Shown piece by piece: positions 4,075 to 26,352 of a stretch of 64,000 nt of DNA. The DNA comes from Candidatus Gottesmanbacteria bacterium (GTDB taxonomy: Bacteria; Patescibacteriota; Microgenomatia; UBA10105; UBA927), in assembly GCA_963701185.1 (NCBI GenBank), contig OY969569.1, positions 731,548 through 795,547 of the forward strand. Direction: 5' to 3'. The stretch's first letter is position 1; the number at the start of each line of letters is the position of its first letter. Both the position numbers and the translations under genes were made by a program. Below the pieces are notes generated by a model, which was not told the DNA's origin, searched no databases, and was given only the letters and a program-made list of their open reading frames with translations.

Positions 4075-4110
<36 letters not shown>

Positions 4111-6666: not shown

Positions 6667-6705
<39 letters not shown>

Positions 6706-6918: not shown

Positions 6919-6950
<32 letters not shown>

Positions 6951-11706: not shown

Positions 11707-12004
11707 TCATGAGAGTCTCTTTGCTCTGTACACCAATAAACTGCTTTACCACGGTTCCCCCTTTGAAAATCATCAGGGTCGGGATGCTCATAATGCCGAA
11801 TTTCTGGGAAATAGCCGGATTTTCATCCACATTTAGTTTTCCTACTTTCGCTTTGCCGTCCATGACCGCAGCAACTTCTTCTACAATCGGCCCCTGTATC
11901 TGGCACGGACCGCACCAGACCGCCCAAAAATCCACCAGCACTGGTGTATTATGTTTTAACACTTCCGTATCGAAATTTGCATCCGTTATCGTTACATCTG
12001 CCAT
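11681..12004 (-). CDS. trxA: Thioredoxin
   Basis: WCGPC active site; 107 aa. Confidence 0.9.
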   Translation of the reverse strand: MADVTITDANFDTEVLKHNTPVLVDFWAVWCGPCQIQGPIVEEVAAVMDGKAKVGKLNVDENPAISQKFGIMSIPTLMIFKGGTVVKQFIGVQSKETLMSELNKLIN

Positions 12005-12049: not shown

Positions 12050-12493
12050 TTGTACAATACAATTCTTATGCGAATATTTTTTGCAGGTCCGCTGACTGAT
12101 CTCAGAAATCCGACGGTTACCAAAGCATTCTACCGCCGATTGGCCGCCGTGGCTCGCACAAACGGTTTTGACTACTTTTGGGCATTTTTAAACGGCACCG
12201 ATCCGGTTTTAAATCCCGACGTATCACCGAAAGAAGTCTACCGGGTCGATACCAAACAATTATCTCAAAGCGATTTCATGGTTGCCTACATGGGTGAACC
12301 CTCAACCGGTACCGGCATTGAGATCGAATATGCCAAAGCGCATAACATTCCCGTCTATATTCTCTACGAAAAAGGCAGGCGTATTTCCCGCATGCTGCGC
12401 GGCTGTCCCGCAATAAAAAAAGAAATCGTATTCACCTCCCCCGAAGATGGGCTCAAACAATTCGATACCCTGCTTTCAAAACTACGTCTGTGA
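12050..12493 (+). CDS. Nucleoside 2-deoxyribosyltransferase-like protein
   Basis: N-terminal FFAGPL, then PSTGTGIEIEYAKA. This resembles the NDT-family YxAGP...GTxxExGxA motifs. Confidence 0.5.
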   Translation: MYNTILMRIFFAGPLTDLRNPTVTKAFYRRLAAVARTNGFDYFWAFLNGTDPVLNPDVSPKEVYRVDTKQLSQSDFMVAYMGEPSTGTGIEIEYAKAHNIPVYILYEKGRRISRMLRGCPAIKKEIVFTSPEDGLKQFDTLLSKLRL

Positions 12494-12653
12494 TCTTCAT
12501 TTCTGCGATTTTTTTTTCGTCAAATTCCACCTGCAGCGTTTGTTTTACATAATTGCAATTGGCTTTCACCCCTGCATCCTCAAGATCGCTTTCAATCATA
12601 AGCGCGCAGCTTGTGCAGTGCATGCCGTCAATTTTATATGTTTTTTTGATCAT
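12453..12653 (-). CDS. copZ: Copper chaperone CopZ (HMA domain)
   Basis: GMHCTSC (MxCxxC) in a 66-aa ferredoxin-like HMA domain. The ORF-track start lies upstream; the internal Met fits the domain. Confidence 0.8.
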   Translation of the reverse strand: MIKKTYKIDGMHCTSCALMIESDLEDAGVKANCNYVKQTLQVEFDEKKIAEMKITDVVLKAGYRIV

Positions 12654-12657
12654 AGAG

Positions 12658-13647
12658 TTAATCCGCCACGGTAAATGCGCCGGTATACATGCCCATACTG
12701 CAGGAATACGCAAGCCGGCCGCTCTTTTGGGGGGTAAATTCAATCGTCTCATCACCCGTCACGGGCAAAACTTTGGAAATATTGAGATCCGGGATAGTGA
12801 ATGCTCTTGCACACCCCTGCGTATTATTCGTTGCGAGGGTGAGATGCACCGGAACGCCGCGTTTCAGCGTGTTTGCGCTCGCTGCATACCCGTGGCTGGT
12901 TACCGTAATCGTGACGTCCTGTACCCCACCCGTAACCTCGGCCGTACTACCCACGGTAAACTCCCCGGTGGCCGCGCGGTAGTAATTTTGAAGTGTATAC
13001 GGCGAACCCATAAGTCCCAGCCCCCCATTTACAGACAGGATAGCAAATACGAATATGATTGCCGCCGCCGCATAGGAGAATACTTTCTTTTGGAGAAGCT
13101 CCACAACTGTCGCACCGAGTATAAAAAAGACCGGACTCGTGCCCAATATAAATGCAAACATGATGGCCGCGCCACTAAATGGATTGCCGCTGGCAACTGC
13201 AACCGCCATGGTGGCCTGGGTAATCCCGCAGGGCAACAGAATCGTCAGGAAACCCAATAGTGCGGGGGCAAACAAAGACTTACTCCTACTGGTATTTTTC
13301 ATCATCCGGAATGTCCAGCGCGGCGGCGTAATGACGAAATATCGAAAGACTGGGTGCGCATCAATGATCCGCAGGGCTGTCGCGATCATGAATAAGCCTG
13401 CCCCAATCTGCACCCATCCCAACAGTTTCGGCGTCAGGGTTAATGTTGACCCGATAAGTCCGAGAAGAAACCCAAGGAGTGTATAGGCGAAAAGCTTGAA
13501 GACCACAAACATGCCCATCTGCTGCCACCTGTTTGATTCGTTATTGATTGCAGAGGCTAACAGCCCTCCCTGCACAGCCAGGCACGAAATGCCGCCTGTG
13601 GTAAGTCCTGTCAGAAACGCAAGCCACACGAGATTCATAGAGGACAT
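12658..13647 (-). CDS. CcdA/DsbD_2-superfamily membrane domain fused to a C-terminal cupredoxin-like domain with non-canonical ligands
   Basis: TM region with one Cys in an early helix (GGISCLAVQGG) and a PC motif in a later helix (LLPCGITQAT). The C-terminal about 110 aa matches the cupredoxin_1 pattern (FTIPDL...IEFTPQKSGRLAYSCSMGMYTGAFTV). Cys/Met replace the usual His ligands. Confidence 0.6.
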   Translation of the reverse strand: MSSMNLVWLAFLTGLTTGGISCLAVQGGLLASAINNESNRWQQMGMFVVFKLFAYTLLGFLLGLIGSTLTLTPKLLGWVQIGAGLFMIATALRIIDAHPVFRYFVITPPRWTFRMMKNTSRSKSLFAPALLGFLTILLPCGITQATMAVAVASGNPFSGAAIMFAFILGTSPVFFILGATVVELLQKKVFSYAAAAIIFVFAILSVNGGLGLMGSPYTLQNYYRAATGEFTVGSTAEVTGGVQDVTITVTSHGYAASANTLKRGVPVHLTLATNNTQGCARAFTIPDLNISKVLPVTGDETIEFTPQKSGRLAYSCSMGMYTGAFTVAD

Positions 13648-13680
13648 TGTACCGTATAAACTGACTCCGATACAACGCTT

Positions 13681-13860
13681 CTAGCTCACGTATTGTGATG
13701 AGTTTTTATCAAACATCTTTTTACAGCTTTCTGAACAAAATCCAAATTCTTTCCCGTTGTAAACACTCTTAAACTTTGCCGTACTGACAGTTACCGTCAT
13801 ACCGCAAACAGGGTCTTTCGTTTTTCCTTCACCGGAAAATAGTTTTTTTAGAAAATTCAT
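13681..13860 (-). CDS. YHS-domain (TRASH-like) metal-binding mini-protein, 59 aa, not in the ORF track
   Basis: Hand translation gives MNFLKKLFSGEGKTKDPVCGMTVTVSTAKFKSVYNGKEFGFCSESCKKMFDKNSSQYVS. It carries the canonical DPVCGM...Y.G..Y.FCS..C YHS signature. Confidence 0.65.
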   Translation of the reverse strand: MNFLKKLFSGEGKTKDPVCGMTVTVSTAKFKSVYNGKEFGFCSESCKKMFDKNSSQYVS

Positions 13861-13868
13861 AGTTTTTA

Positions 13869-14096
13869 TTAAACGATCTCTCCCTTCTTTTCAAGCATCA
13901 TGTGATGCATCGTTGCCACCTGAACCCATATCGCGATAAGAATAAGAATACCGGTGCAAAGTAATACGTCCACCTTCGAGATTCCGAGGAGAGTTTCTGA
14001 TCCACCTAAAACGGCAACTGCAAATAAAATAACACCGATAACCCCGACGCCAACACTCACAACATGCAGTAATTTCGATAATTTCATACTCTTCAC
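13869..14096 (-). CDS. Small membrane protein with a C-terminal MHHMM motif
   Basis: 75-aa ORF with two TM helices. The terminal ...VATMHHMMLEKKGEIV suggests metal binding. Confidence 0.4.
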   Translation of the reverse strand: MKSMKLSKLLHVVSVGVGVIGVILFAVAVLGGSETLLGISKVDVLLCTGILILIAIWVQVATMHHMMLEKKGEIV

Positions 14097-14102
14097 CTCC
14101 TT

Positions 14103-14804
14103 CTAAAGTTTTTCTCTACGGAGTAGCAGAGCGTTAAATACGACGATCACTGAGGAGGCGCTCATAAGGAGCGCTGCCCATTCAGGCCGAAGTAAGATAC
14201 CGAATGCCGGATACAAAACTCCCGCTGCCGTGGGAATGGCAAACACGTTGTATCCTGTCGCCCATATGAGATTTTGTACCATTTTCGCATTCGTCTTTCG
14301 GCTCAAAGAAATAGCCTTCACAACATCGAGCGGATTGTTTTTCATAAGGACTATACTTGCCGATTCAATAGCGACATCGGTTCCCGCGCCTATTGCGATA
14401 CCCACGTGGGATTGTGTGAGGCTTGGGGCATCGTTCACGCCATCACCAACCATCGCGACAATATGGCCGTGTTTTTGTAGTTCTTTAACTTTATTTACCT
14501 TGTCGTCCGGTAGTACGTGCGCAAATACCGTATCAACATGTAACTGGCGCCCTATGACATCCGCTACATCCTGCGTATCCCCGGTGAGCATTGCGGTTTT
14601 AATACCCATCTCGTGCAACCGTTCAATTGCTTCTTTAGATTCATCACGAATGATATCGGAAAGATACATGGCACCCTGAAATACGTTATCTATCGCAATG
14701 TAGACCGGGGTTTTTCCTTTCATCTGCTGGATTTTAGACGGAAGCGCGATATGGAGCTCATCCAAAAGCGTTTTGTTGCCGACAACGACTTTTTTACCTT
14801 TCAC
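14103..14804 (-). CDS. copA: C-terminal part of the Cu(I)-translocating P1B-type ATPase CopA (hinge GDGVNDAP plus last two TM helices). The gene is split from the N-terminal part by frameshift(s).
   Basis: MVGDGVNDAP, HVGIAIG and a C-terminal TM pair. This frame continues upstream as FKSYPGKGAAGVVKGKKVVVGNKTLL, the expected CopA sequence. Confidence 0.8.
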   Translation of the reverse strand: MKGKKVVVGNKTLLDELHIALPSKIQQMKGKTPVYIAIDNVFQGAMYLSDIIRDESKEAIERLHEMGIKTAMLTGDTQDVADVIGRQLHVDTVFAHVLPDDKVNKVKELQKHGHIVAMVGDGVNDAPSLTQSHVGIAIGAGTDVAIESASIVLMKNNPLDVVKAISLSRKTNAKMVQNLIWATGYNVFAIPTAAGVLYPAFGILLRPEWAALLMSASSVIVVFNALLLRREKL

Positions 14805-16378
14805 AACTCCAGCAGCTCCTTTCCCCGGATATGACTTAAAGTTCTGTTACTTCGGGAATAGGTAATATTTTGTTTTTTTGCTTCATTTACGATCCCCTGG
14901 GCGATTGAATGTTGGGATTTTACCTCCACCGCACTTGCTAAGGACAATAAATCTTTATCTGATATTTTTGAACCTTTGGTTTGGACGATCTGATTGATAC
15001 CGAATTCACCGCGGGTAAGCGTTCCTGTTTTGTCAAAGACGACATAATCAATTTTCCGGGCGATCTCGAGCCCTTTCATGTCTTTGATAAGGATGCCGTT
15101 TTTTGCGCCGAGCGTAGACGTGATGGTGGTTACCGTAGGAATAGCCAGGCCGAGAGCGTGCGGACAGGCAACCACAATTGCAGCTACGGCTACCGTTGCA
15201 GCAAAAACTGCGCCTTGAGGAAAAATAAACATCCAGAATACAAATGACAATAATCCTGCAACGACTGCAACATAAAATAAGACTGCCGCTGCCCGATCGG
15301 CGAGGTGCTGTACATTGGGTTTTGACATCTGCGCTTCGCGGATAAGTTTCATGATTTGAGAAATCGCGGTATCTGCGCCGGTTCTCGTAACCTCAATGGT
15401 GAGTGCCCCGTCCTGATTGAGCGTTCCGCCGATAACTTTATCGTCCTTCGCTTTACTGACGGGGCGCGATTCACCGGTCACCATCGATTCGTTTACCGAA
15501 CTTTCTCCTTCCACTATTATGCCGTCAATGGGAATTTTTTCTCCGGGCTTGACCAATAAACGGCTGCCGATAACGACGTCACTGGTACCAACGTCCACGA
15601 TCGTTCCGTTTTTAACCAGATGTGCCGACGGAGGGATAAGTTTGGCAAGCTCGGCAAGTGCTCCTGTTGCGCCACGAACAGCCCGCATTTCCAGCCAGTG
15701 GCCGAGTAAAAAGACGGAGATTAAGGTGGCAATTTCCCAGTAGAGTGACTCCCCGGGAAAAAGAAACGTTGCGGCAACGGAAAACGTATACCCGACGGTA
15801 ATGGCAAACGCGACCAGGGTCATCATTCCCGGATTTCTTTTGGATAGTTCGCCTTTGGCTGCCTTAAAAAACGGAATACCGCCAAAAAAATAAATAAACG
15901 TGCCGATCACAAATTGGAGTATGGCAAGTCCGGTGAATACTGCCTGAAAACCGAGCCATTTCTGAATATTCGGAGATAAAAGCATCGTGATGAGAACGAG
16001 CGGAAGGGTAATGAAGAAACGTCGTCGGAAATCCTTCTCCATAGAACTATGATCTTCATGTCCTTCGTGGGAAGAAGTCATCGGAACAAGCTTCATGCCG
16101 CATTTCGGACAATCCCCGGGTTTTTCCGTAATGACATCGGGGTCCATCGGACACGTATACAGGGTACCCGTATTCCCCTGCGCTTTTTGGTGACGTTCGC
16201 CCATAGCGGGAACCAATTTCATACCGCATTTGGGGCATGTACCGGGCCTGGAAGACGTAACCTCTTCATGCATCGGGCACGTATATATTTTGTGTTCAAT
16301 CTGTTTCATGTGGAGCATCCTTGATCCCCTGTTTTTGACCCACGTCCTCGTATCACTATACCATACAGAAATATACAT
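14801..16378 (-). CDS. copA: N-terminal part of CopA. It holds two HMBD repeats, TM helices and the actuator and phosphorylation domain through DKTGTLT, then is frame-disrupted near 14835-14880.
   Basis: Two YTCPMH...PG.CPKCGMKLVP repeats; the TGE motif (MVTGESRP); VVFDKTGTLT. The ORF tail after ...AKKQNI is out of frame relative to CopA homologs. Confidence 0.8.
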   Translation of the reverse strand: MYISVWYSDTRTWVKNRGSRMLHMKQIEHKIYTCPMHEEVTSSRPGTCPKCGMKLVPAMGERHQKAQGNTGTLYTCPMDPDVITEKPGDCPKCGMKLVPMTSSHEGHEDHSSMEKDFRRRFFITLPLVLITMLLSPNIQKWLGFQAVFTGLAILQFVIGTFIYFFGGIPFFKAAKGELSKRNPGMMTLVAFAITVGYTFSVAATFLFPGESLYWEIATLISVFLLGHWLEMRAVRGATGALAELAKLIPPSAHLVKNGTIVDVGTSDVVIGSRLLVKPGEKIPIDGIIVEGESSVNESMVTGESRPVSKAKDDKVIGGTLNQDGALTIEVTRTGADTAISQIMKLIREAQMSKPNVQHLADRAAAVLFYVAVVAGLLSFVFWMFIFPQGAVFAATVAVAAIVVACPHALGLAIPTVTTITSTLGAKNGILIKDMKGLEIARKIDYVVFDKTGTLTRGEFGINQIVQTKGSKISDKDLLSLASAVEVKSQHSIAQGIVNEAKKQNITYSRSNRTLSHIRGKELLEL

Positions 16379-16398
16379 TAAGATTCTATGAAAATCTG

Positions 16399-16758
16399 TT
16401 ATTTTTGCTGTGCCATTTCTATTTTATGCTCGGCAATTCCCAGGGCTTCGGCCCCTGATATCAGAGGCAATTCGGAATTTTGAAATTCCTTTGATTGAAG
16501 CAAATTGTTGAGTTCTTCCGGCGTGGTCAGTTCTGCGTGGAAGAAAATTTCAACGGCAGAACGCTCCGGGTTGACTTTGGCATCGACAACATGACGCTGT
16601 ACTTTTAGCTTTTGCTCTATGAGCTTGGGATCTAGACTTTGCAATTCTTTCGGCAGCGGAAGTGTCACAGCGGGCATGAGTGTCATTCCACACTTCGGAC
16701 AGCGCCCTGGTTTATCTAACAGTACTTCCTTGTGCATCGGACAGGTATACATAGTCAT
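16399..16758 (-). CDS. Heavy-metal-binding domain (HMBD, YTCPMHxEV...CPKCGM) protein
   Basis: MTMYTCPMHKEVLLDKPGRCPKCGMTLMP is the same motif as the CopA N-terminal repeats. 119 aa. Confidence 0.7.
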   Translation of the reverse strand: MTMYTCPMHKEVLLDKPGRCPKCGMTLMPAVTLPLPKELQSLDPKLIEQKLKVQRHVVDAKVNPERSAVEIFFHAELTTPEELNNLLQSKEFQNSELPLISGAEALGIAEHKIEMAQQK

Positions 16759-16770
16759 ATGTCTATTGTA

Positions 16771-17397
16771 CTAGACTTTCATGAAAAAAGAAGGAAACCA
16801 TCCGGGAGTTACTTTTTTGTAACGTTGATAATCGTCTCCAAACGTCTCTTCCATTTCTCTCTCTTCAGTACTCGCTAGCCGGATATACCGCCAAATAAGG
16901 ATGGGCGCCATGATAAGGGTAACAAGGGTCGGCCATTGAAGAAGGAAGCCAAAAATAATGAGGATAAATGCGACATACTGTGGATGACGGATATATGTAT
17001 AGATGCTGGTAGTCGCCAGCCGGCGCTCTTTCTGTGCCTTATAGAGCACTTCCCAGGATTTTCCAAGAAGGATAATGCCGCCGATAATCAAAACATTGCT
17101 GACAATATGTAATATATCAAAATGCGGATCGCCCTTGATTCCCAGCAATGTATTGAGAATATGGCCTTTATCATGGGTATAATCCAGCCCGAAACGGTTA
17201 CCGAAGAATGAAGTCAAAAGGTAAATGGTAAGCGGAAATCCGTACATTTCAGCAAAAAGCGCTACGATAAACGCACCCATGGACCGGAATGTCGTCCAGT
17301 CGGTTTTTGTCCTTGGTTTAAACGCGCTTTTGATAAAGAAAAGGAATATGACGATGTTAAAGATGGCAAACAGCCAATTTCCGTATCCGTTGTCCAT
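16771..17397 (-). CDS. Isoprenylcysteine carboxyl methyltransferase (ICMT)/PEMT-family membrane methyltransferase
   Basis: Multi-TM protein with an RHPxY...E C-terminal signature (IRHPQYVAF...EEREMEETFGDDY). Confidence 0.7.
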   Translation of the reverse strand: MDNGYGNWLFAIFNIVIFLFFIKSAFKPRTKTDWTTFRSMGAFIVALFAEMYGFPLTIYLLTSFFGNRFGLDYTHDKGHILNTLLGIKGDPHFDILHIVSNVLIIGGIILLGKSWEVLYKAQKERRLATTSIYTYIRHPQYVAFILIIFGFLLQWPTLVTLIMAPILIWRYIRLASTEEREMEETFGDDYQRYKKVTPGWFPSFFMKV

Positions 17398-17456
17398 ATG
17401 GCAGCAGTATAAGACATCAAAGATGAAGATTATGTGATGATTCTGGTGGTGTCTGA

Positions 17457-18203
17457 TTACGATGCTAATCTGACTAATTTAGCCTTCACATTGAGACGTT
17501 TCCATGTTGTACCGGGCGGAACACAGGTAATAAGCGTAATGTACGAATTATCAAATTGTTGCTCCAATGGTGAAAGGTCTGTGGGGTCAGTAACGGTCAT
17601 GTCAAAAATGACATACCGGTACTCCACCCCGTCATAGGTAACAAATATTTCATCACCGCGTTTCAGCGTCGGGAGTGTCGAGAAAATAGTTTTATAATCC
17701 GTGGGATTGAATAACTGAGGCAGCGTAGAGTGTCCGAACACGATTGTGGTGCCGTACTCCCCCGGAAGGCCTGTGCCGCCGTAATGAATGAGACTCTTGC
17801 TAAGGTCATTACCCCCTATAACGACGCTTGCATCTTTTATTTTTAGCTTCGGAATAGACAACGTGTATGCATTGACCGGAGAAACTACTTTTTTTTGCGG
17901 TTTTGTGGGATACCATGAATTTGCATCCGTTGATGTATCCCCGCCGGGAGTTATTTGTCCGGCCGCTAAAACCACGGGCGAAAGTCCTGTTTCGGTGTCG
18001 GCAACAGGTGAAATAATCTTAGCTATAAACGGAGCCGTAAATATGGTAAACGATAAGATCGGCCAAAAAGTCCATAGCAATATTGAAACTCCAAGGATTA
18101 TGAATACTGCCGATAACTTTTCTGAGTGTTTTCGTCGTTGCCAAAAAAATTGTTTTTTTTGAAAATCGCCCGGTTGGGCTTTAACGTATCGATACAGCGC
18201 CAT
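17457..18203 (-). CDS. Sortase family transpeptidase
   Basis: N-terminal TM anchor, catalytic TLITC motif near the C-terminus and a conserved His/Arg framework. Confidence 0.7.
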   Translation of the reverse strand: MALYRYVKAQPGDFQKKQFFWQRRKHSEKLSAVFIILGVSILLWTFWPILSFTIFTAPFIAKIISPVADTETGLSPVVLAAGQITPGGDTSTDANSWYPTKPQKKVVSPVNAYTLSIPKLKIKDASVVIGGNDLSKSLIHYGGTGLPGEYGTTIVFGHSTLPQLFNPTDYKTIFSTLPTLKRGDEIFVTYDGVEYRYVIFDMTVTDPTDLSPLEQQFDNSYITLITCVPPGTTWKRLNVKAKLVRLAS

Positions 18204-18218
18204 ATAGATGAGCGACTC

Positions 18219-18389
18219 TTAATGTTTGTGTCCCCCATCCTTCATCATCCAGACATGAAGAAGCGGGCAGAGAAGGAGCGCTCCTGCAAACAGAAGAGTT
18301 TCCACAGATACTTTAAACATGGTAACCGCGACAACGGCCAGTGCGATCACTCCCAGACAAATGACTCCGACACGACCTGCCTCCTTCAT
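18219..18389 (-). CDS. DUF2933-like mini membrane protein, 56 aa, not in the ORF track
   Basis: Hand translation gives MKEAGRVGVICLGVIALAVVAVTMFKVSVETLLFAGALLLCPLLHVWMMKDGGHKH, one TM helix plus a CPLLHxxMM...GGHxH tail. ATG at 18387-18389. Confidence 0.5.
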   Translation of the reverse strand: MKEAGRVGVICLGVIALAVVAVTMFKVSVETLLFAGALLLCPLLHVWMMKDGGHKH

Positions 18390-18450
18390 GCGATCAGTAT
18401 AAAAAACAGAGTATTATGAAAGCATGAAGGAGGGGTGAAGACTTCTTCAT

Positions 18451-19110
18451 TTAAAGCTTTGCCACCTCCGCGAGCATCTCCTTGTTTCTGACTGCCATCT
18501 GGGCATCATCAAGCGTAGATCGAACGATCCCGTCTTTATCAATTAAGATGTATGTATGTCCGGGAAATTGGCCCCTGTGCATTGACGAGTTGAGCGTTAA
18601 TACGCCGAACAGATTAGAAACCGACCGGTCCGGATCCAAAAGTACGGTGTTGCCGGCGAGCTCCGGCATCTTGTCAATTGCCTGCTTCCATTCCTCTTTT
18701 GTGTTAACCGTAATATTGAAAACCGCCGTATTTTTGGCTGCAAAATCTTTATCCTGGCCAAAAGCGATTATCTGATTCCAACAGGCCGGATAGCACATCA
18801 GACCCTCGTTAAAGAAAAGAACCACGTTTTTACCGCGAAAGTCTTTAAGGCTGATTGTTTTCCCATCATAACTGGGTGCCGTAAAATCCGGTGCAGGCGT
18901 ATTGATAAGGCTATCAAAAATAGCTGAATCTGCCGGCTTTGGTTTATGATGATCTGCCATCGAATCACCGGCGGCCGGCGTTTGCGCCTGTGTATTGACC
19001 GTTGCTGAGCCCGAATTTTTGATACATAGGGCTCCTAATATTACTACTGCCACAATAACTTCAGTGGCAATGATGACGATGTGTTTCTCAGTGAATTTCA
19101 TGATGTTCAC
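18451..19110 (-). CDS. Thiol-disulfide oxidoreductase of thioredoxin fold (TlpA/ResA/redoxin-like). It is membrane anchored and extracytoplasmic.
   Basis: N-terminal TM helix and a CYPAC CxxC motif in a thioredoxin-fold context (NVVLFFNEGLMCYPAC). Confidence 0.7.
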   Translation of the reverse strand: MNIMKFTEKHIVIIATEVIVAVVILGALCIKNSGSATVNTQAQTPAAGDSMADHHKPKPADSAIFDSLINTPAPDFTAPSYDGKTISLKDFRGKNVVLFFNEGLMCYPACWNQIIAFGQDKDFAAKNTAVFNITVNTKEEWKQAIDKMPELAGNTVLLDPDRSVSNLFGVLTLNSSMHRGQFPGHTYILIDKDGIVRSTLDDAQMAVRNKEMLAEVAKL

Positions 19111-20005
19111 CTCCTTTCATAAATTTTTTTCTGTCCATCCATTGCTTCAAGGCTTCTATAATAATTGCTCCAATAATGAGGACGAAAATACCGGCCCAAA
19201 CAGGTTCAGGAATAATTCCGGTATAGGTACCGATGAATTGAGTGAGCCGGGCTATGTAAATAGTAACGGATAGCTGGTACGTGTTTTGCATCGTAAGCTG
19301 ATTGGTGATGGTGAGATACAGAATGAGTATGCCTATAAAAAAGTACATACTGCCGGAAACAACGTTGGAAAGCGTGCTGGTGATCGTAAGCCTGAAAAGT
19401 TTGAAGGTCATGGGAGTTCTCAGCACCAATAGTTTTTGCGTGATGCGTGTTTTATCCAGAACTGCCGACAATACAAACAGCGGTATGACCATACCCAACA
19501 CATAGGTTATTGTGTACAGGGCGCCCCAAAGATATGAGCCTGGTAATGCGGACAGCGTAAGGACTCCGGCCAGGACCGGTGCACAACAGGTCGTCGCTAT
19601 CGCTGAAAATATGCCCAAAATAAAAATGGAAACCATGTCATATTTTTTAAATTCCGGGTGGGCAATCATCGGCAAAGAAAATTGTTTCCCTAAAAGGAGC
19701 GAAATACCAAGAAGCACCAGAAATGAAGCACCACCGAAAAATAATGCGTCGTGATACTGCCTAAACAACATGGATACTGCCGCTGTCCCTAGCCCGATCG
19801 GAATAAATACAGCTAAAAGTCCTAAGAAGTAGACAAACGTCATCAAAAAAACCGTACGTTTTTGTTTCACGACGGAAGCAAAGTACGTAGGAAGCAGCAC
19901 GGTAATGCAGCAGGGTGCCGCGAGCGCCGCAATTCCGGCAATAAAAGCAGACACGAGTGACGCACTCACAAGTACATCCATATTCCAAGAAGTTTTTAGC
20001 AACAA
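19088..20005 (-). CDS. CcdA/DsbD-superfamily polytopic membrane protein with paired-Cys (CC) motifs; paralog 1
   Basis: AAPCCITVLLPTYFA in TM1 and TTCCAPVLAGVLTLS in a later TM. It is a clear paralog of the 23047-23892 gene. Confidence 0.55.
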   Translation of the reverse strand: MLLKTSWNMDVLVSASLVSAFIAGIAALAAPCCITVLLPTYFASVVKQKRTVFLMTFVYFLGLLAVFIPIGLGTAAVSMLFRQYHDALFFGGASFLVLLGISLLLGKQFSLPMIAHPEFKKYDMVSIFILGIFSAIATTCCAPVLAGVLTLSALPGSYLWGALYTITYVLGMVIPLFVLSAVLDKTRITQKLLVLRTPMTFKLFRLTITSTLSNVVSGSMYFFIGILILYLTITNQLTMQNTYQLSVTIYIARLTQFIGTYTGIIPEPVWAGIFVLIIGAIIIEALKQWMDRKKFMKGGEHHEIH

Positions 20006-20184
20006 CCTCCCCCGCTATGTTGTCGGGGCTTACCCACAAACTGCTGTTGGTTTTTATCAAATTGGGCTTGACAGCTTTCGGAACAGAACCTATACGTCGT
20101 TCCGTTATGGCGTGTCTGATATGGAGACTCTCCGACTCCCATTCCACAGACCGGATCCTTTGACTTTTTAGAAAACCAATTCAT
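19996..20184 (-). CDS. YHS-domain metal-binding mini-protein with a C-terminal GGGCC
   Basis: MNWFSKKSKDPVCGMGVGESPYQTRHNGTTYRFCSESCQAQF is a canonical YHS signature. The terminal ...HSGGGCC adds Cys. Confidence 0.65.
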   Translation of the reverse strand: MNWFSKKSKDPVCGMGVGESPYQTRHNGTTYRFCSESCQAQFDKNQQQFVGKPRQHSGGGCC

Positions 20185-20247
20185 AGATATCTCCTTTCAG
20201 GAACAATCAGTATGAGCTTTCATTGTAGAGACTGTGGTATGAAGAAA

Positions 20248-21645
20248 TTATGAGGATGAAAGCGGCAAATAGATCGTAAACTCGCTACCCTTGCTAACCT
20301 GGCTTTTGACGTGTATCGCACCATGGTGCGCGTTAATAATCGCCAGGGCAATAGACAGACCAAGTCCGGAGCCGAACGTTTTATCGGTTTTACTCCCTCG
20401 GTAGTACCGTTCAAATATATGGGGTACGTCCTTTTTGTGAATGCCGACGCCGATGTCTCTGATCTGAATGAGTATATGTTCGTCCGTTGTGGTTAATCGG
20501 ATGCGAACCGTGCCTCCACTTGGCGTGTACCGGATTGCGTTATCGATGATATTGATGACGGCACGCGACAGTTTGTCTTTTTTTCCATATGCTTTCACAT
20601 CGGGCTGTATAGCGGTTTCAATTCGTATCTTTTTTTCGGTTGCCAACTTGACGGCAATTTCCTTGAGCTCCCTCAGCAGTTCTGAGATGTCAAAGGTTTC
20701 AAATTGCTGGGTTGCGCTGTCTGCTTCCGACCACGCAAGATCTAAAATATTCTTCACCGTGTTTGTTACTCTTTTGGTATCGATGAGTGTTTCGGAGAGG
20801 GCTTTTTTGTACTCCTCTTTTGTTCGTTCTTTTGCAAGGATGACTTCACTACCGGTTTGAAGGATAGACAGAGGGGTTTTGAGTTCATGGGCAACATCGC
20901 CGATAAACTGGCGTTCGCGGGTAAATGCGTCATGAAGGCGGTCAAGGAGTGTGTTAAACGTCACTGCGAGTTTTTCTATTTCATCACCCGTATGTGGGTT
21001 CGTCACCCGCTCATGTAAGTTATCAGGGTTGATATGTTCAAGTTCTCCCGTAATCGTTGCAACAGGCTGTATAGCACCGCGTGCATTCAGGTATCCCCCA
21101 ATAATCGTAGGAATGAGGAAAATGATAAAGACACCGCCGAGAATGGTCAGAAGTATATTGATGGACTGTTGTATGGCGTCAATCGGATGACCCATAAAGA
21201 CAACACCGACAAAAATATTGTTTTGATGAACAGGACTTACATAAAATCGCATCAGTTGTGTCCCCACGGTTTGATCAGTAAAAAATGGGCGGTCTGTGTT
21301 TTTCGCAGTTTCAAATAATTGCGAGAATCGGGTGTCCGGCGGGTTTGTTGCCTGCGAACTGGTCACTGTCTTTCCCGCGCTATTGGTTATAACAACAAGC
21401 ATTCCCGGAAGCTGGCTAAATTCCTGCAGAAAGGATTGCGCGGCAAAGGCTTCATGCATCGTGCCGTTTGTCTGGGTAACGATCTCGATAATTTTATTGC
21501 TGTGTTCGATGAGCGTCCTATCAACCTGTGAGAACAGCGTTTGTTTGGTGAGAATGAAGAAACTTATGAAGATGATCGCGATGGCAAGGATAAACGATGC
21601 CGTATACCAGAGTGTCAGACGGAAGAGAATACTTTTCGTGTTCAT
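20248..21645 (-). CDS. Sensor histidine kinase with two TM helices, HAMP, HisKA and HATPase_c (CusS/CopS-like)
   Basis: H-box DVAHELKTPLS; N, G1 and G2 boxes (IIDNAIRYT, DIGVGI, GSGLGLSI). Confidence 0.9.
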   Translation of the reverse strand: MNTKSILFRLTLWYTASFILAIAIIFISFFILTKQTLFSQVDRTLIEHSNKIIEIVTQTNGTMHEAFAAQSFLQEFSQLPGMLVVITNSAGKTVTSSQATNPPDTRFSQLFETAKNTDRPFFTDQTVGTQLMRFYVSPVHQNNIFVGVVFMGHPIDAIQQSINILLTILGGVFIIFLIPTIIGGYLNARGAIQPVATITGELEHINPDNLHERVTNPHTGDEIEKLAVTFNTLLDRLHDAFTRERQFIGDVAHELKTPLSILQTGSEVILAKERTKEEYKKALSETLIDTKRVTNTVKNILDLAWSEADSATQQFETFDISELLRELKEIAVKLATEKKIRIETAIQPDVKAYGKKDKLSRAVINIIDNAIRYTPSGGTVRIRLTTTDEHILIQIRDIGVGIHKKDVPHIFERYYRGSKTDKTFGSGLGLSIALAIINAHHGAIHVKSQVSKGSEFTIYLPLSSS

Positions 21646-22319
21646 GGATGCACACTTATTTTATACCCGATGCCATGAATTGTATGCACGAGTTTGATTT
21701 TGGAATTTTTATCGACTTTCCGCCTCAAGGCTGCGACAAATACATCAACGACGTTACTCATGCTGTCAAAATTATAATCCCACACGTGTTCGGTAATCAT
21801 CGTTCGGGTAACCACTTCTCCTTTGTGGCGCAGTAATAACTCTAAAATGGCAAACTCCTTCGGCGTCAGTTTTATTTCATTTCCGGCTCTCTGGGCGATG
21901 TGTTTCATCGGATCGAGTGTGAGATCATCAAGCGATAGTGTGAGTGTCGGCGCAAGCTGAGTGCTTCTCCTGATAAGCGCATGGATACGGCTGCGTAGTT
22001 CCAAAAAGGAAAATGGTTTACCCAGATAATCATCCGCACCGCTATCCAGGCCGGAAACCCGGTCATCCACCGTAGTTTTAGCGGTAAGCATGAGAATGGG
22101 AGTCTTTATTCCTTTTTTCCGCAGTTCCCGGCAGACAGTCAACCCATTCTTTTTCGGTATCATGACATCCAATATGATAAGGTCGTATGTTTCAGATTCT
22201 GCCAAATACTGACCTTCTTCACCGTCATACGCTGCGTCTACTGCGAATCCCTCTTCAACCAGACCTTGTTTAACGACATGAGATAAGCGGCGTTCATCCT
22301 CTACGACGAGAATTCTCAT
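21642..22319 (-). CDS. OmpR-family response regulator (CusR/CopR-like). The start was moved to the internal Met (MRILVVEDE).
   Basis: Receiver domain with D...D...K residues (LDVMIP, MLTAK) and a C-terminal winged-helix domain (LTPKEFAILELL). It is translationally coupled to the kinase (ATGA). Confidence 0.9.
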   Translation of the reverse strand: MRILVVEDERRLSHVVKQGLVEEGFAVDAAYDGEEGQYLAESETYDLIILDVMIPKKNGLTVCRELRKKGIKTPILMLTAKTTVDDRVSGLDSGADDYLGKPFSFLELRSRIHALIRRSTQLAPTLTLSLDDLTLDPMKHIAQRAGNEIKLTPKEFAILELLLRHKGEVVTRTMITEHVWDYNFDSMSNVVDVFVAALRRKVDKNSKIKLVHTIHGIGYKISVHP

Positions 22320-22466
22320 ACCTGCATTATACGCTAAAATTATGAAGGAATTATTAAGATTTGATCGTAACGATTGTGGGACGTTCATTCCTATATTCAT
22401 GAAATCTTCATATTTAAAAGTGTTTAATACGAAACACCGCAATAATAGCGTGGCAGAGGAGGCTCT
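22320..22466. promoter_or_regulatory. Divergent intergenic control region between the response-regulator arm (-) and the DUF1573/CcdA/rhodanese arm (+)
   Basis: 147-bp AT-rich spacer. It holds a perfect palindrome GTGTTT-N6-AAACAC (22420-22437) and ATGAA-ATC-TTCAT (about 22398-22410), then a GAGGAGG RBS before the 22467 ATG. Confidence 0.35.
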
Positions 22467-22967
22467 ATGAGTGGAGAAACCAAATTTATTATCGGTGTGT
22501 CGGTTGTTACTGTTGCAATAATCGTCGGGGCAATCGTGCTCTTCAGCAATCAAAAACCGGCACCCAAACGGGAAGAATTAGGATCCGCAAGCATGACGAT
22601 TGATAAAAAGTCCGAGGATTTTGGCTCCATGAAGGTCAGTGATGAGCGGCGTGCCGCATTTACCATAACCAATACAGGCGACTCGATTCTCCGGATCTGG
22701 AAAGTAGCGACCTCCTGCGACTGTACGGCGGCGACCGTTAAAATCGGCGACACGGAAACTCCGGAGTTTAGTATGGCAGGGATGATGAGTTCGGAGCGCG
22801 CCAACTGGCTCGGTGAAGTGCCTGCAGGTAAAAACGCTGTTTTGACCGTTATCTACCGGCCGAGCGTTATGCCGGTTAACGGTCCGATTACCCGTCAGGT
22901 AAACTTTTCAACCAACGACCCGAATAACCCGGATGTGCAAGTCAGCATCTCGGCGAATGTACTATAA
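22467..22967 (+). CDS. DUF1573-like membrane-anchored protein
   Basis: N-terminal TM helix followed by a beta-rich domain with a TSCDCTAA motif. Confidence 0.6.
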   Translation: MSGETKFIIGVSVVTVAIIVGAIVLFSNQKPAPKREELGSASMTIDKKSEDFGSMKVSDERRAAFTITNTGDSILRIWKVATSCDCTAATVKIGDTETPEFSMAGMMSSERANWLGEVPAGKNAVLTVIYRPSVMPVNGPITRQVNFSTNDPNNPDVQVSISANVL

Positions 22968-23046
22968 AATTTTTAATCAATTTTTATTTTCTTAATTTTT
23001 AGTATTCAATGAAAATTTCAAATTAAAAATTGAAAATTAAGACTTT

Positions 23047-23892
23047 ATGAACAGCTTAGCTCTCATACAAAGTATTTCCTTAATTACAGCGTTTTTTGGC
23101 GGCATGGTGGCACTGTTTGCGCCGTGCTGCATCACGTTCCTTCTTCCAAGCTACCTCGCCAATATCTTCCGGGGCCGGAAAAATATTTTAGGGCTCACGC
23201 TCCTGTTTGGCCTGGGCATTGCAACCGTTCTTGTCCCGGCCGCCCTGGGAATCAGGGCTGTGGGACAGCTCTTTCAAAAATTCCATACCCAGACATATCT
23301 TGTCGGCGGCGCATTCATGGTCATTTTGGGTCTTATGGAGCTGACCGGCAAAAAAATTACAATTCCGATGCTCAACCTCACCATCGACCTTAACGCACAT
23401 AAAAGTCCCTGGGCAGTGTACGTCCTGGGTGTATTTTCCGGCATCACCTCGAGTTGCTGCACGCCGGTTCTTGCCGGTATTTTAACATTAAGTTTCCTCT
23501 CCCCCTCTTTCCTGTGGGCCGGTCTTGCCGGAGTAGCCTATGTCGCCGGCATGGTTGTACCGCTTGTTATCCTTGCTCTTCTTTTGGACCGCGTTGATTG
23601 GCAGAAAATGATGAATATAAAAGGGAAAACAGTGAATCTTTTTGGGAAAGCAAGACTACTGACCGACGTCGTTGCAGGATTCCTGTTTATCGCGGTAGGC
23701 ATACTGTTTAGCGCCCTGGCCGCTTCCGGCAATATCGCCATGGGCACCACAAAACCGGTTGAGGCAACGCTTGGGACGGGTGTTATGAATATCGTAAGAA
23801 GCGTTCGCTCTATTCCGGGGAGCGAATTTTTCTTTGCCGCGGCTCTCATTATAACCATCGTCATTGTTATATGGAAAGGAAAAAAAGTATGA
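23047..23892 (+). CDS. CcdA/DsbD-superfamily membrane protein with CC motifs; paralog 2
   Basis: ALFAPCCITFLLPSYLA and SSCCTPVLAGILTLS. It is collinear with the 19088-20005 protein. Confidence 0.55.
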   Translation: MNSLALIQSISLITAFFGGMVALFAPCCITFLLPSYLANIFRGRKNILGLTLLFGLGIATVLVPAALGIRAVGQLFQKFHTQTYLVGGAFMVILGLMELTGKKITIPMLNLTIDLNAHKSPWAVYVLGVFSGITSSCCTPVLAGILTLSFLSPSFLWAGLAGVAYVAGMVVPLVILALLLDRVDWQKMMNIKGKTVNLFGKARLLTDVVAGFLFIAVGILFSALAASGNIAMGTTKPVEATLGTGVMNIVRSVRSIPGSEFFFAAALIITIVIVIWKGKKV

Positions 23893-24974
23893 AAAAAACA
23901 TCCAATGAATTACCAAAAAAGGCAACGACAGTTCTCGTTCTCGTATCGCTCGTCCTGACCGGATATCTTTTGGGTGCCAAACAGGATGCACTGCGAGGTA
24001 TTCTTGCCAATCCGTTTTCTGCCGGCTATCGTCAGCAAAATGCGGTGAGTGCAAAACAGCTGGCTGGAATGATGAAAAACAAGGATTTTACGCTCATTAA
24101 CGTCCACACGCCGTACGAGGGTGAAATACCTAAAACCGACGCATTTATCGCCTACGATAAAATCGTCGAGAATTCGGCAAGCCTTCCCAAAGATAAGAAC
24201 GCGCCGATTATCCTCTACTGCCATACCGGCCGCATGAGCGATGAGGCCGTCACGACACTCAAAAAAATGGGATACACCAACGTGCGCCAGCTGGCGGGTG
24301 GGACGAACGCGTGGAAAAAAGCCGGACAAACCGTCATGGACCTCCAGTCACTGACTGACGAGGTGCTTCCGAAAAATGGTGCGACGCTTTCCGTGTCCTG
24401 GGGTGATATCTGGCCGAAACTCGTCGCGGCCGGGGTCATAGATCTTGCGAAGTTCAAAGAAACGGTCAAGCCGACGCCCGACCAGGAAAAAATTCTGACG
24501 GAAGGATCGGATGAAAAAATTACCATCACTGCCGAAAACAGTCAGTTTATTGTCGATGCGCTGTGGGCATTGGGTCTGGCGCAAAAAAGTACCGTCTATA
24601 CGGACGGCCCGATGGGCAAGGAGTATAAAAAAGAGGCCGGTAACTTCTCATCAACCGGCGGGTGGACATTGGCGCGCGGCAACGCAACGGACTATCTTGG
24701 CCAGCTTGACGTCATTCCGTTGACGGATGCCCAGCAGAAAAAAGTTGCGGAGATTGCCAAAAACGTCTATCGCCCGTGCTGCGGCAATTCAACATGGTTT
24801 CCGGACTGCAACCATGGCATGGCGGCCCTTGCGGCTATAGAACTCATGGTGTACGCAGGAATGGAAGAAAAACAGATTTATAAAGAGGTGCTCGCCTTAA
24901 ACAGCTTTTTCTTTCCGCACGAATTATCTCACGACTGCGACCTATTTTGCGAGGGCTGGTACACCGTGGGATAA
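23871..24974 (+). CDS. Membrane-anchored rhodanese-domain protein fused to an unrecognised C-terminal Cys/His-rich domain
   Basis: N-terminal TM helix. The rhodanese active-site loop LYCHTGRMS sits in an about 100-aa rhodanese fold. The about 200-aa C-terminal region has CCGNSTWFPDCNHG and HDCDLFC with no family I can name. Confidence 0.7.
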   Translation: MERKKSMKKTSNELPKKATTVLVLVSLVLTGYLLGAKQDALRGILANPFSAGYRQQNAVSAKQLAGMMKNKDFTLINVHTPYEGEIPKTDAFIAYDKIVENSASLPKDKNAPIILYCHTGRMSDEAVTTLKKMGYTNVRQLAGGTNAWKKAGQTVMDLQSLTDEVLPKNGATLSVSWGDIWPKLVAAGVIDLAKFKETVKPTPDQEKILTEGSDEKITITAENSQFIVDALWALGLAQKSTVYTDGPMGKEYKKEAGNFSSTGGWTLARGNATDYLGQLDVIPLTDAQQKKVAEIAKNVYRPCCGNSTWFPDCNHGMAALAAIELMVYAGMEEKQIYKEVLALNSFFFPHELSHDCDLFCEGWYTVG

Positions 24975-25160
24975 AGTGGACGCCAAAGAGGCCTTGGGCG
25001 CCACATACTCAGGCGGCCAGGGTGCGGCAGAAATTTCCAAAAAAGTGGGTCCCCTGCCCTACGGACAGAAGTCAGCCGGCGGCTGCGGCGCGTAACATAT
25101 GATCATACTGCCAATAGTAAGTGGCATCTATCGACAATCGGATTACTTGCTCTATACGGG

Positions 25161-25517
25161 GTGACGTTAATTACACTCAACGGGTGGCCGGGTTCGCTCG
25201 AAGAAATTCAGTCGCTCTGGTGGCTTCTGGTGCCGCTTGCCATAGCCTTCGGGACACAGGTGGGCATGTTTGTTGCTCTCAAGCGGCGCGCACGGATTCA
25301 CGGGGCTACATCGCTTGCAGGAGGTGGCGCGTCCGCGGGCGTGAGCATGCTTGCCTGCTGCGTCCATCATGCAACGGATGCGCTCCCGCTTTTGGGCATG
25401 TCGGCTGTGGGATTTTTTCTCATCCGTTTTCAAAAACCGCTGCTTGTCGCGAGTATCGCCATAAATAGTATCGGCATCTGGTATATGTACAAACACTTAA
25501 AAAAGGCGTCGCTATGA
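25161..25517 (+). CDS. Small membrane protein with an ACCVHH motif. GTG start; the start is uncertain.
   Basis: 118-aa ORF with three or four TM helices and paired Cys plus His in a TM region. Confidence 0.45.
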   Translation: MTLITLNGWPGSLEEIQSLWWLLVPLAIAFGTQVGMFVALKRRARIHGATSLAGGGASAGVSMLACCVHHATDALPLLGMSAVGFFLIRFQKPLLVASIAINSIGIWYMYKHLKKASL

Positions 25518-25936
25518 TCAAAATACTACTCCCCATCCTTGCCGTGCTCGTGGCAATAATTCTTCTCCGGAATAAACCGGCAGCAGGGCCGTCACCGGTC
25601 CCATTTGAAACAAAACAAAATACTGAGGCAAATGTGGAGATATCTGTGACGCCGCAAACACTCACGCCGGGTAAACAGGCAACATTTCAGATATCTTTTA
25701 CTACGCACTCCGTGGACCTCAATTTTGACGTTGCGGGCAGTGCGGAATTGGTTGATGAAAAAAACAATATTCTGGGGAAAGCCGTGTGGGATGGCACCCC
25801 GCCGGGCGGCCATCACCGCAGCGGTGCGCTGACGTTTTCAGCCCCTCTCCCTAAACAAATAAAATCCGTCACTCTTACCCTCGCGGATATTTCCGGAATC
25901 GCAACACGTACGTTTGAATGGAAGGTGATAGAATAA
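25514..25936 (+). CDS. Secreted or membrane-anchored beta-rich protein with a GTPPGGHHRSG motif
   Basis: N-terminal signal anchor, 4-nt overlap with the upstream gene and a His-containing loop. Confidence 0.5.
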   Translation: MIKILLPILAVLVAIILLRNKPAAGPSPVPFETKQNTEANVEISVTPQTLTPGKQATFQISFTTHSVDLNFDVAGSAELVDEKNNILGKAVWDGTPPGGHHRSGALTFSAPLPKQIKSVTLTLADISGIATRTFEWKVIE

Positions 25937-26338: not shown

Positions 26339-26352
26339 GGAGGTGAGTGTTT

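Follow-up and report, generated by a model that had tools for sequence, protein, structure and literature searches.

We analyzed a 64-kb window (64,000 nucleotides of contig OY969569.1) from the genome of a Candidatus Gottesmanbacteria bacterium, which likely carries a copper-stress island of ~14 kb under a CopRS/CusRS-type two-component system, with 14 co-directional genes that form a regulon of juxtaposed modules and not an indivisible operon. The island is two-sided, comprising a minus-strand array (positions 12453-22319; open reading frame (ORF) scan and gap calculation) and a divergent set of plus-strand genes, and covers positions ~12453-26481 in total. An earlier interpretation made without database searches (hereafter, the sequence-only reading) had correctly delimited the ~10-kb array, but missed the divergent half, which extends to ~26480. 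It had also described 14 tightly packed genes with gaps below 60 nt; the packing is as described, with inter-gene spacing of -23 to +63 nt, but the two largest gaps (61 and 63 nt in the gap table) exceed that bound. The closest protein relatives of the window genes are found in Gottesmanbacteria and other Microgenomates, that is, within the candidate phyla radiation (CPR/Patescibacteria). In the CPR, genomes are minimal and gene regulation has hardly been explored by experiment; the island offers a concrete, testable regulon in this group.

Regulator pair and candidate CopR boxes

The array opens with the gene for a CopR/CusR-type response regulator of the OmpR family (21642..22319, minus strand; Pfam Response_reg and Trans_reg_C), which overlaps by 4 nt the gene for a CopS/CusS-type sensor histidine kinase (20248..21645, minus strand; Pfam HAMP, HisKA and HATPase_c). 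The best NCBIfam matches are TIGR01387 (cztR_silR_copR; 263.4 bits against a cut-off of 279.2) for the regulator and TIGR01386 (cztS_silS_copS; 243.7 bits against 292.55) for the kinase, both just under the respective cut-offs. Judged by these scores, the two proteins are divergent relatives of the CopRS/CusRS families, not curated members, in agreement with the CusRS-like label given to them in the sequence-only reading.

In Corynebacterium glutamicum, the experimentally defined CopR box, TGAAGATTTnnTGAAGATTT, is located in a divergent intergenic region and controls copB and a tlpA-containing operon (PMC3140484). The intergenic region between the regulator and DUF1573 genes of the window contains TGAAGATTTCATGAATATAG. 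A search of the whole window, with G or T allowed at position 2 and up to three mismatches, returned four CopR-type boxes against 0.32 expected, a number reached in none of 100 shuffles. All four are confined to intergenic gaps of the island: in the regulator promoter (22343..22362, plus strand; followed by 11 nt, TATAAT, 6 nt and the ATG), ahead of the divergent DUF1573 operon (22391..22410, minus strand; -10-like hexamer TTTAAT), upstream of the ICMT gene (17424..17443, plus strand; followed by 12 nt and TATACT) and upstream of the ATPase gene (16378..16397, plus strand; followed by 12 nt and TATGGT). The first half of the DUF1573 box, TGAAGATTT, agrees with the C. glutamicum half-site at every position, and the position of the ICMT box is also occupied in related loci L009, L010, L014 and L063. 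The promoter geometry common to the four sites (box, 11-12 nt, -10-like hexamer) recurs at most of the 28 sites laid out from related CPR loci. Consistently, when up to two mismatches were allowed, 29 sites were found in 262 kb of CPR copper loci versus none in 894 kb of non-CPR ICMT loci, and metagenome loci anchored on the redoxin gene yielded 21 sites versus one in the shuffled control. Corynebacterium has the same box, which suggests that the specificity of CopR is deeply conserved. A further CopR box is possible upstream of the gene pair encoding the DUF2933-like protein and a sortase, where the window contains a weak match (13/18) with non-standard spacing, and L002 and L093 contain better-spaced half-sites.

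The start codons of the regulator and ICMT genes are located 6-8 nt past the -10 hexamer and are not preceded by a Shine-Dalgarno sequence. Since the regulator ATG follows TATAAT by 6 nt, the corresponding mRNA is probably leaderless. The same configuration, with ATG 5-10 nt past the -10 and no Shine-Dalgarno sequence, was observed at regulon promoters of the window (22320-22466, 17398-17456 and 16310-16398) and of L002, L009-L021, L090, L093 and L094, which would imply leaderless mRNAs in many CPR lineages. Given the boxes and their shared geometry, the array is most readily interpreted as a CopR-type regulon that has four or more promoters and mostly leaderless or short-leader mRNAs. In such a regulon, CopS would sense extracytoplasmic copper and phosphorylate CopR, which would bind direct-repeat boxes, T[G/T]AAGATTT-nn-T[G/T]AAGATTT, overlapping the -35 of at least four promoters, namely, P_copR, the divergent P_DUF1573, P_ICMT and P_ATPase. 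The regulator, the probable box, the fixed promoter geometry and the predicted, mostly leaderless transcripts appear to be common to dozens of uncultured lineages.

Comparison of gene neighborhoods showed that the same gene set and modules recur in ~60 related CPR loci, in shuffled order. The clustering is far beyond chance, so that the chance juxtaposition contemplated in the sequence-only reading can be set aside, but gene order is not conserved. A redoxin-anchored metagenome scan recovered 48 loci with lengths of 6 kb or more; the upstream side of the redoxin gene could be scored in 44. Around the CcdA-like and redoxin genes are found, in variable order, the regulator-kinase pair, the genes for DUF2933-like, ICMT, ATPase, YHS and DUF5676 proteins, a CCxHH/PPGGHHR pair, DsbD_2-cupredoxin together with CopZ, and a DUF1573/CCcdA2/rhodanese set. 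Relative to L090, the central block of the window is inverted around the divergent promoter, which accounts for the long co-directional run in the window. Modularity, not a fixed operon, is the rule among the related loci. The CPR copper toolkit appears to comprise approximately ten shuffled modules, of which ICMT, DUF2933, DUF5676, the CCxHH/PPGGHHR pair and the CC-pair CcdA with its CxxxC redoxin are uncharacterized everywhere.

Modules of the island and its surroundings

Membership of the modules is established by homology and conserved linkage, whereas the roles given for them below are proposals. Pfam and NCBIfam searches bore out the domain assignments of the sequence-only reading, with the match to DUF2933 being sub-threshold only. 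The first module, predicted to buffer Cu(I) in the cytoplasm and to export it, comprises CopZ, YHS, HMBD and P1B ATPase proteins, all encoded on the minus strand, as are the other genes of the array. The CopZ-like HMA protein (12453..12653; Pfam HMA and NCBIfam CopZ models) contains the GMHCTSC motif, and the stand-alone HMBD protein (16399..16758; Pfam HMBD, E = 1.4e-12) displays the YTCPMH...CPKCGM signature. Two YHS proteins are encoded, YHS/TRASH mini-protein 1 (19996..20184; Pfam YHS, E = 1e-13), which terminates in GGGCC and has a strong Shine-Dalgarno sequence upstream of its gene, and YHS mini-protein 2 (13681..13860; Pfam YHS, E = 3e-16). The P1B copper ATPase (14103..16318) has two N-terminal HMBD repeats, as previously read, but not in a single ORF: two frame breaks split the gene over ORFs 14801-16378 and 14103-14804, both halves of which have Pfam (E1-E2_ATPase) and NCBIfam matches. 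Since the ATG at 16378 falls inside the promoter, translation likely starts at 16318. The best NCBIfam match of both halves is TIGR01511 (ATPase-IB1_Cu), each scoring below the cut-off because the gene is split. ATPases of the P1B-1 subtype are characterized by CPC in transmembrane segment 4 (TM4), N-x6-YN-x4-P in TM5 and P-x6-M-xx-SS in TM6; the window enzyme has CPH, not CPC, in TM4, and its TM5 and TM6 motifs, as read from the translations, fit the P1B-1 pattern. A P1B ATPase in L002 (12849-15089), 40-57% identical to that of the window, carries CPD in TM4, indicating that the clusters recruit different ATPase subtypes. Also in this part of the array are a two-helix mini-protein with an MHHMM motif (13869..14096), which has no Pfam match and of which a 70% identical homolog is encoded next to the ICMT gene in L055, and a DsbD_2 membrane domain fused to Cupredoxin_1 (12658..13647; Pfam, E = 1e-28 and 3e-11), a fusion that recurs with CopZ/HMA in CPR loci.

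The second module is centered on an ICMT/PEMT-family membrane methyltransferase (16771..17397; Pfam ICMT 39.9 bits and PEMT 40.3 bits, E ~5e-10, above cut-off). An ICMT-anchored scan of 185,579 species genomes (GTDB) yielded 576 confirmed relatives, and neighborhoods were examined for the best 80. These best 80 of the 576 show 51-78% identity across phyla and are encoded by Proteobacteria, Cyanobacteria (plasmids included), Acidobacteriota, Chloroflexota, a Methanotrichaceae archaeon and CPR. In 65 of these 80 loci, a P1B ATPase is encoded within 10 kb of ICMT; many of the 15 exceptions are short contigs. YHS is often found nearby, either free or fused to the ATPase N-terminus. The window gene conforms to this family in both domain (ICMT/PEMT) and context (P1B ATPase and DUF2933 or YHS neighbors). 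Its cross-phylum conservation is unusually high for a membrane enzyme and points to horizontal spread together with P1B ATPases. The DUF2933-like two-helix mini-protein (18219..18389), ending in LLLCPLLHVWMMKDGGHKH, matches PF11666 below the gathering threshold (E = 0.003; 18.0 bits against 21); it was assigned to the family because of the conserved C-terminal CPLxH...H motif, maintained in the CPR orthologs, and conserved adjacency. ICMT, DUF2933 and cupredoxin would constitute an accessory set that travels with copper ATPases and is widespread, albeit biochemically uncharacterized. We considered the C-terminal Cys of YHS (-GGGCC) as a substrate of ICMT methylation and rejected it, as only 3 of ~26 free-standing YHS proteins near ICMT end in Cys and YHS is fused to the ATPase in most non-CPR loci. 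In L014 (6489-8629), three genes are inserted between those for DUF2933-like and ICMT, encoding, as judged by eye, a BlaI/CopY-like repressor, a BlaR1-like M56 peptidase and a DsbA-like thioredoxin with CPFC.

The third, thiol module is formed by two neighboring genes. One encodes a CcdA/DsbD_TM-family membrane protein with PCC in TM1 and TCC in TM4 (19088..19981; Pfam DsbD_TM, 31.9 bits against a cut-off of 27.1, E = 1e-7), which aligns to Thermus thermophilus CcdA (PDB 5VKV; E = 2.5e-10) with the first Cys of each pair placed on a catalytic Cys. By homology and by the presence of a catalytic Cys in each repeat it belongs to CcdA/DsbD_TM; after each of these residues comes a further, invariant Cys, and neither CC pair varies across 28 homologs, the plus-strand paralog included. 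The other encodes a membrane-anchored thioredoxin-fold protein (18451..19101; Pfam AhpC-TSA/Redoxin, E = 5e-21) with invariant M-C-Y-P-A-C-W, SSMH and PGH motifs. The sequence-only reading had this redoxin as CxxC; the motif is in fact CxxxC (CYPAC), invariant in 29 homologs along with FFNEG, SSMH, PGH-Y and DDxMAxRN. The invariant Cys, Met and His residues (M105, C106, C110, M177, H178 and H185) would suit Cu(I) binding and thiol-disulfide chemistry alike. Peroxiredoxins and ResA are the nearest folds of the AlphaFold2 model (predicted local distance difference test score of 80.5). We rejected the possibility that the redoxin is a peroxidase, considering that the catalytic Thr and Arg of peroxiredoxins (P-x3-T-x2-C) are replaced and the invariant motif reads FFNEG-MCYPACW, as well as the possibility that it is a Sco/SenC protein, which yielded no PF02630 match at E <= 0.01 and no Sco among the top 50 Foldseek matches in the PDB.

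The CcdA-like gene lies directly upstream of the redoxin gene in 41 of the 44 metagenome loci scorable on that side, and the YHS 1 gene, whose product ends in CC, is upstream of the CcdA-like gene and probably translationally coupled to it (with the longest ORF start assumed). A natural 507-aa fusion of DsbD_TM and Redoxin, P0297, links the two neighboring window genes as a Rosetta-stone protein. The island is directly flanked on its CopZ side by thioredoxin reductase and thioredoxin genes (10744-12004, minus strand), an arrangement also present in L090. Based on adjacency, the P0297 fusion and the trx/trxR proximity, electrons would pass from thioredoxin through the CcdA-like protein to the redoxin. 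Thus fed by the thioredoxin system next door, the CcdA-like protein would keep the CxxxC/His/Met redoxin reduced, and the latter would either reduce extracytoplasmic cysteines that copper has damaged or bound, or itself bind Cu(I).

The fourth module, restricted to this lineage, is a paralogous sortase (17457..18203; Pfam Sortase, E = 2e-21) with intact His, TLITC and Arg catalytic motifs (FGHS, TLITC and RLNVKA are conserved), the catalytic Cys of which is a plausible client of the thiol module. It scores above the cut-off of the general model TIGR01076 (57.4 bits against 39.35), and none of the class-specific NCBIfam sortase models reaches its cut-off. Sortases are located inside copper clusters in the window and in L002, L093, L094, L090, L021, L137 and L142, that is, in eight clusters. 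Among the closest relatives with readable context, two groups could be distinguished. Sortases with the signature PPGTTW (window/L001, L002, L093, L094 and L090) are all encoded inside CopRS copper clusters, whereas those with PPGTYW (L005, L088 and L092) occupy a housekeeping context consisting of alaS, a gene for a ~700-aa protein, the sortase, thymidine phosphorylase and yceG. The ~700-aa protein encoded upstream of the housekeeping sortases lacks a hydrophobic tail at its C-terminus. Sortases of lower identity (46-47%) are also found inside copper clusters, at other positions (L021, L142 and L137). Overall, four placements were observed: after the DUF2933-like gene, before the regulator, after the HMBD gene and before the CcdA-like gene. 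A literature search found no description of a sortase linked to a copper regulon. We regard the sortase as a genuine but lineage-restricted accessory member of the island, which could link copper stress to cell-surface assembly.

The plus-strand half begins with a DUF1573/Ig-like membrane-anchored protein (22467..22967; Pfam DUF1573), the first gene of the divergent operon, which is syntenic with CCcdA2 and rhodanese genes in L009, L011, L014, L019, L090 and other loci. It is followed by a second CC-pair CcdA-like membrane protein (CCcdA2; 23047..23892), a paralog that has no Pfam match on its own but aligns with the CC-CcdA family with both CC pairs conserved, and by a rhodanese-domain protein with a C-terminal PCCGNSTxFPDCNHG region (23871..25095; Pfam Rhodanese). 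Within 22467-24974, the CcdA-like, rhodanese-domain and DUF1573 proteins weakly match NCBIfam models named for selenoproteins, TsoB (a rhodanese/DsbD fusion) and OS_HP2, which hints that the trio might be a split, Cys-containing counterpart of a TsoB/OS_HP2-type selenoprotein system. Further downstream on the plus strand are genes for a small membrane protein with a CCVHH motif (25101..25517; recovered by tblastn with the L090 and L002 orthologs and three-frame translation), a secreted or anchored PPGGHHR protein that is always paired with the CCxHH protein (25514..25936), a second DUF2933-like mini-protein (25918-26082), a DUF5676 protein (26060-26338; Pfam, E = 5e-21) and a 44-aa MMGYYGGMMG mini-protein (26347-26481). 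The last three mark the end of the island and have homologs in L090; the two mini-proteins were taken from the ORF list.

The G+C content of the island (0.45-0.47) is slightly below that of its flanks (0.48-0.51). Beyond the CopZ end, a nucleoside 2-deoxyribosyltransferase-family ORF (12050-12493, plus strand) converges on the CopZ gene, overlapping its 3' end by 41 nt, and contains a terminator-like hairpin for the minus strand (12391-12375). Upstream of the thioredoxin reductase and thioredoxin genes lies a 228-aa ORF (10086-10772, minus strand), FAD/NAD-binding oxidoreductase-like from sequence alone. On the other side, 1 kb past the island, is a VKOR-family gene (27420-27860, plus strand; Pfam, E = 2e-20) for a DsbB-like disulfide-forming enzyme, adjacent to a probable short-chain dehydrogenase gene (sequence motif only). 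The organism thus appears to have both oxidizing and reducing envelope thiol pathways. The window further includes a 23S rRNA gene of 3.7 kb (3486-7191, minus strand) with a group I intron (3781-4036) and, as its length suggests, further insertions, as well as a 5S gene (3255-3371), tRNA-Ala (7439-7514) and few tRNAs overall; such an rRNA region is typical of CPR genomes. Shorter calls of the window sortase, redoxin and CcdA-like genes (99-100% identical) reside on a 995,214-bp NCBI contig, which indicates a genome of ~1 Mb.

Frame breaks and alternative readings

Four frame disruptions fall within ~10.4 kb of the island, two in the ATPase gene and one each in the rhodanese-domain and CCVHH genes. 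Three-frame translation against the intact L002 and L090 orthologs placed the ATPase frame changes at an A7 run (14873-14879) and near 14838-14842, both in the N-domain region, so that the gene has no intact frame through the A, P and N domains. Where the intact 716-aa ATPase of L090 reads AKKRKIAIPEVTAFKSYPGKG, the window passes through all three frames (AKKQNI / LPIPEVTE / FKSYPGKG). In the rhodanese gene, tblastn with the L090 ortholog gives two high-scoring segment pairs in different frames, with the change at ~24905-24915, and the CCVHH gene breaks at ~25125-25135. Logan assembly L001 from sample ERR10755943 differs from window positions 14877-22609 by one mismatch in 7,733 bp; its contig ends at 14877, inside the A7 run, and therefore neither confirms nor refutes that break. 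Other independent sequence was sought: L095 starts past the plus-strand breaks, and exact-protein look-ups of DsbD_2-cupredoxin and YHS 2 gave no match. The ATPase frame changes coincide with two sequences similar to classical ribosomal slippery sites, A AAA AAA C and CUU UAA G, of which the second is akin to the prfB +1 site; the similarity is probably coincidental. Programmed frameshifting was rejected, as two successive +1 events 40 nt apart are implausible and the intact orthologs need none.

Several considerations weigh against the regulon of juxtaposed modules proposed here. The multi-promoter arrangement, and with it box function, leaderless starts and copper induction, is inferred from sequence only, and each of the four window boxes carries three mismatches to the consensus. 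In one alternative, all 14 genes form one operon, which is read from a lone promoter ahead of the regulator gene and encodes an obligatorily coupled export-plus-repair machine. With no gap above 63 nt, several overlaps and, in a search for strong intrinsic terminators within the array, none found, read-through from P_copR is conceivable; however, the ICMT and ATPase genes are preceded by internal CopR-type boxes and well-spaced -10 hexamers, the ICMT and regulator starts have the form typical of leaderless first genes, module order is shuffled in the related loci, and L090 splits the same genes differently across the divergent promoter. What endures of the unit envisaged in the sequence-only reading is the co-localization and probable co-regulation of copper export with an extracytoplasmic thiol module, a linkage that is conserved across genomes, but with four CopR-type boxes, the shuffled order and the L090 inversion, an indivisible operon appears distinctly unlikely. 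A different concern is raised by the frame breaks, which bear on whether the island is fully functional in this genome; if real, they may leave it partly inactive. On the strongest version of this argument, the island is decaying, the ATPase, rhodanese-domain and CCxHH genes are pseudogenes, and copper export no longer works. The density of the breaks, the intact orthologs in L002, L090, L093 and L094, and the lack of clear split genes among six other window ORFs (three overlapping pairs, a check that was not systematic) fit decay, but two of the four breaks are located in or beside homopolymer runs (A7 and T5), as is typical of assembly or sequencing errors, and the remaining island genes are intact with conserved motifs. 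The 99.99% identity of L001 over 7.7 kb, from the same sample, is neutral in this respect. On balance, we consider decay rather doubtful.

As regards the thiol module, vicinal Cys pairs are equally typical of metal transfer, as in MerT, and of disulfide relay. The CC-pair CcdA-like protein and the CxxxC redoxin could thus hand on Cu(I), not reducing equivalents, across or at the membrane, with MerT-like pairs within it and a Sco-like CxxxC and His site outside. The invariance of the CC pairs in both half-sites, the cluster of invariant Cys, Met and His in a redoxin devoid of peroxiredoxin catalytic residues, and the upstream, probably coupled YHS protein ending in CC are in line with this possibility, which is nevertheless somewhat unlikely given the clear homology to the electron carrier CcdA with catalytic Cys positions kept, the lack of SCO1-SenC matches (E <= 0.01) and of Sco proteins among the top 50 structural matches, and the trx/trxR adjacency, which favors a reductant relay. 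The two readings need not be mutually exclusive, by analogy with ScsC, which does both (PMC8900818). As to the sortase, a serious rival to its proposed role is that it is a passenger without a copper role, derived from a housekeeping sortase by duplication and brought into the cluster in a single lineage. Indeed, it is 59-69% identical to the housekeeping sortases; only 3 of ~62 CPR copper clusters in two unbiased samples have a sortase within 8-10 kb, close to chance for proximity and leaving ~95% without one; and a search of the 64-kb window for a substrate, that is, a plausible gene product in which a hydrophobic tail follows an LPxTG-like motif, found none. Conversely, the gene is co-directional with and inside the cluster in all eight cases, at four different positions, and all four context-checked PPGTTW relatives as well as the window sortase itself belong to copper clusters, whereas the three PPGTYW sortases checked are in the housekeeping context. 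The passenger scenario therefore has a real chance of being correct, if less than an even one. A thiol-protected backup sortase is the most attractive hypothesis: CopRS would induce a second sortase together with a reductant or Cu(I)-stripping relay, so that its catalytic Cys would keep working where copper would poison the housekeeping enzyme. The full form of this idea, in which the CC-CcdA-like, redoxin, DUF2933-like and sortase proteins make up a copper-inducible, self-protected surface-anchoring system in one Microgenomates lineage and, separately, the vicinal-Cys CcdA represents a new subclass moving Cu(I) with or instead of electrons, is speculative and, in our view, unlikely.

Comparison with known copper systems

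The regulon of juxtaposed modules resembles several characterized systems, each in part. With E. coli CusRS-CusCFBA, the window shares the heavy-metal two-component family (TIGR01386/TIGR01387) and the divergent layout, but it lacks an RND/CusCFBA efflux complex. Its box is of the actinobacterial CopR type and not the CusR palindrome. The likeness to Sco/SenC chaperones is at the motif level only (membrane-anchored thioredoxin fold, CxxxC and a conserved His in the GHT-Y-LID region), the window redoxin having no PF02630 match and peroxiredoxins and ResA as its nearest structures.

The description of the gene set as not matching any known cop/cus architecture does not hold in view of published clusters (PMC8478169, PMC10907172, PMC3140484). 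The CopRS regulon of C. glutamicum (cg3281-cg3289; PMC3140484) likewise combines an OmpR-type CopR and CopS kinase with a CopR box, TGAAGATTTnnTGAAGATTT, in a divergent intergenic region and with two divergent gene sets, among whose products are a P-type copper ATPase, a heavy-metal-binding protein and a TlpA thioredoxin-like protein. By contrast, the window has no multicopper oxidase, carries several additional box-bearing promoters, belongs to a CPR host and not to Actinobacteria, and is supplemented with the CC-pair CcdA-like, ICMT, DUF2933, YHS, HMBD and DsbD_2-cupredoxin proteins, the rhodanese module and the sortase. The merR-copA-cupredoxin-DUF2933-ICMT cluster is copper-induced in Alteromonas and other marine Gammaproteobacteria, where it is often carried on genomic islands (PMC8478169). 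Co-localization of a P1B ATPase, a cupredoxin-domain protein, a DUF2933 mini-protein and ICMT is common to this cluster and the window, and the window ICMT is >50% identical to proteobacterial, cyanobacterial and archaeal copies; however, the window employs a two-component system instead of MerR, its cupredoxin is fused to DsbD_2, and the genes are not contiguous in the same order. For the thiol module, the closest parallels are ScsABCD and the DsbD/CcdA relays (PMC10907172, PMC5524982, PMC8900818). Scs is a copper-induced envelope system composed of a DsbD-like and a thioredoxin-fold component (PMC10907172), and ScsC has both thiol redox activity and the ability to bind Cu(I) (PMC8900818). 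As in the ScsB/ScsC pair, a membrane protein of the DsbD superfamily, predicted here to be induced by copper, has a thioredoxin-fold partner outside the cytoplasm; in the known relays, such a pair serves to protect or repair cysteines of the envelope and is able to bind Cu(I). The window membrane protein differs in being a minimal CcdA-like core with vicinal Cys in both half-sites and ~120 extra C-terminal residues, and its partner has CxxxC, not CxxC, and falls into the AhpC/TSA-Redoxin branch, not the DsbA/DsbC-like branch of ScsC.

Of the members initially flagged as atypical, just two still merit that label: the sortase and the CcdA-like protein in its CC-pair form. The region is built of known, mobile modules and is not a single novel operon, and current models of copper homeostasis are not overturned by it. 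Compared to the systems above, its novelty resides in the CPR setting, the shared CopR box and predicted leaderless promoter architecture, the pairing of a vicinal-Cys CcdA with a CxxxC redoxin, and the occasional presence of a sortase.

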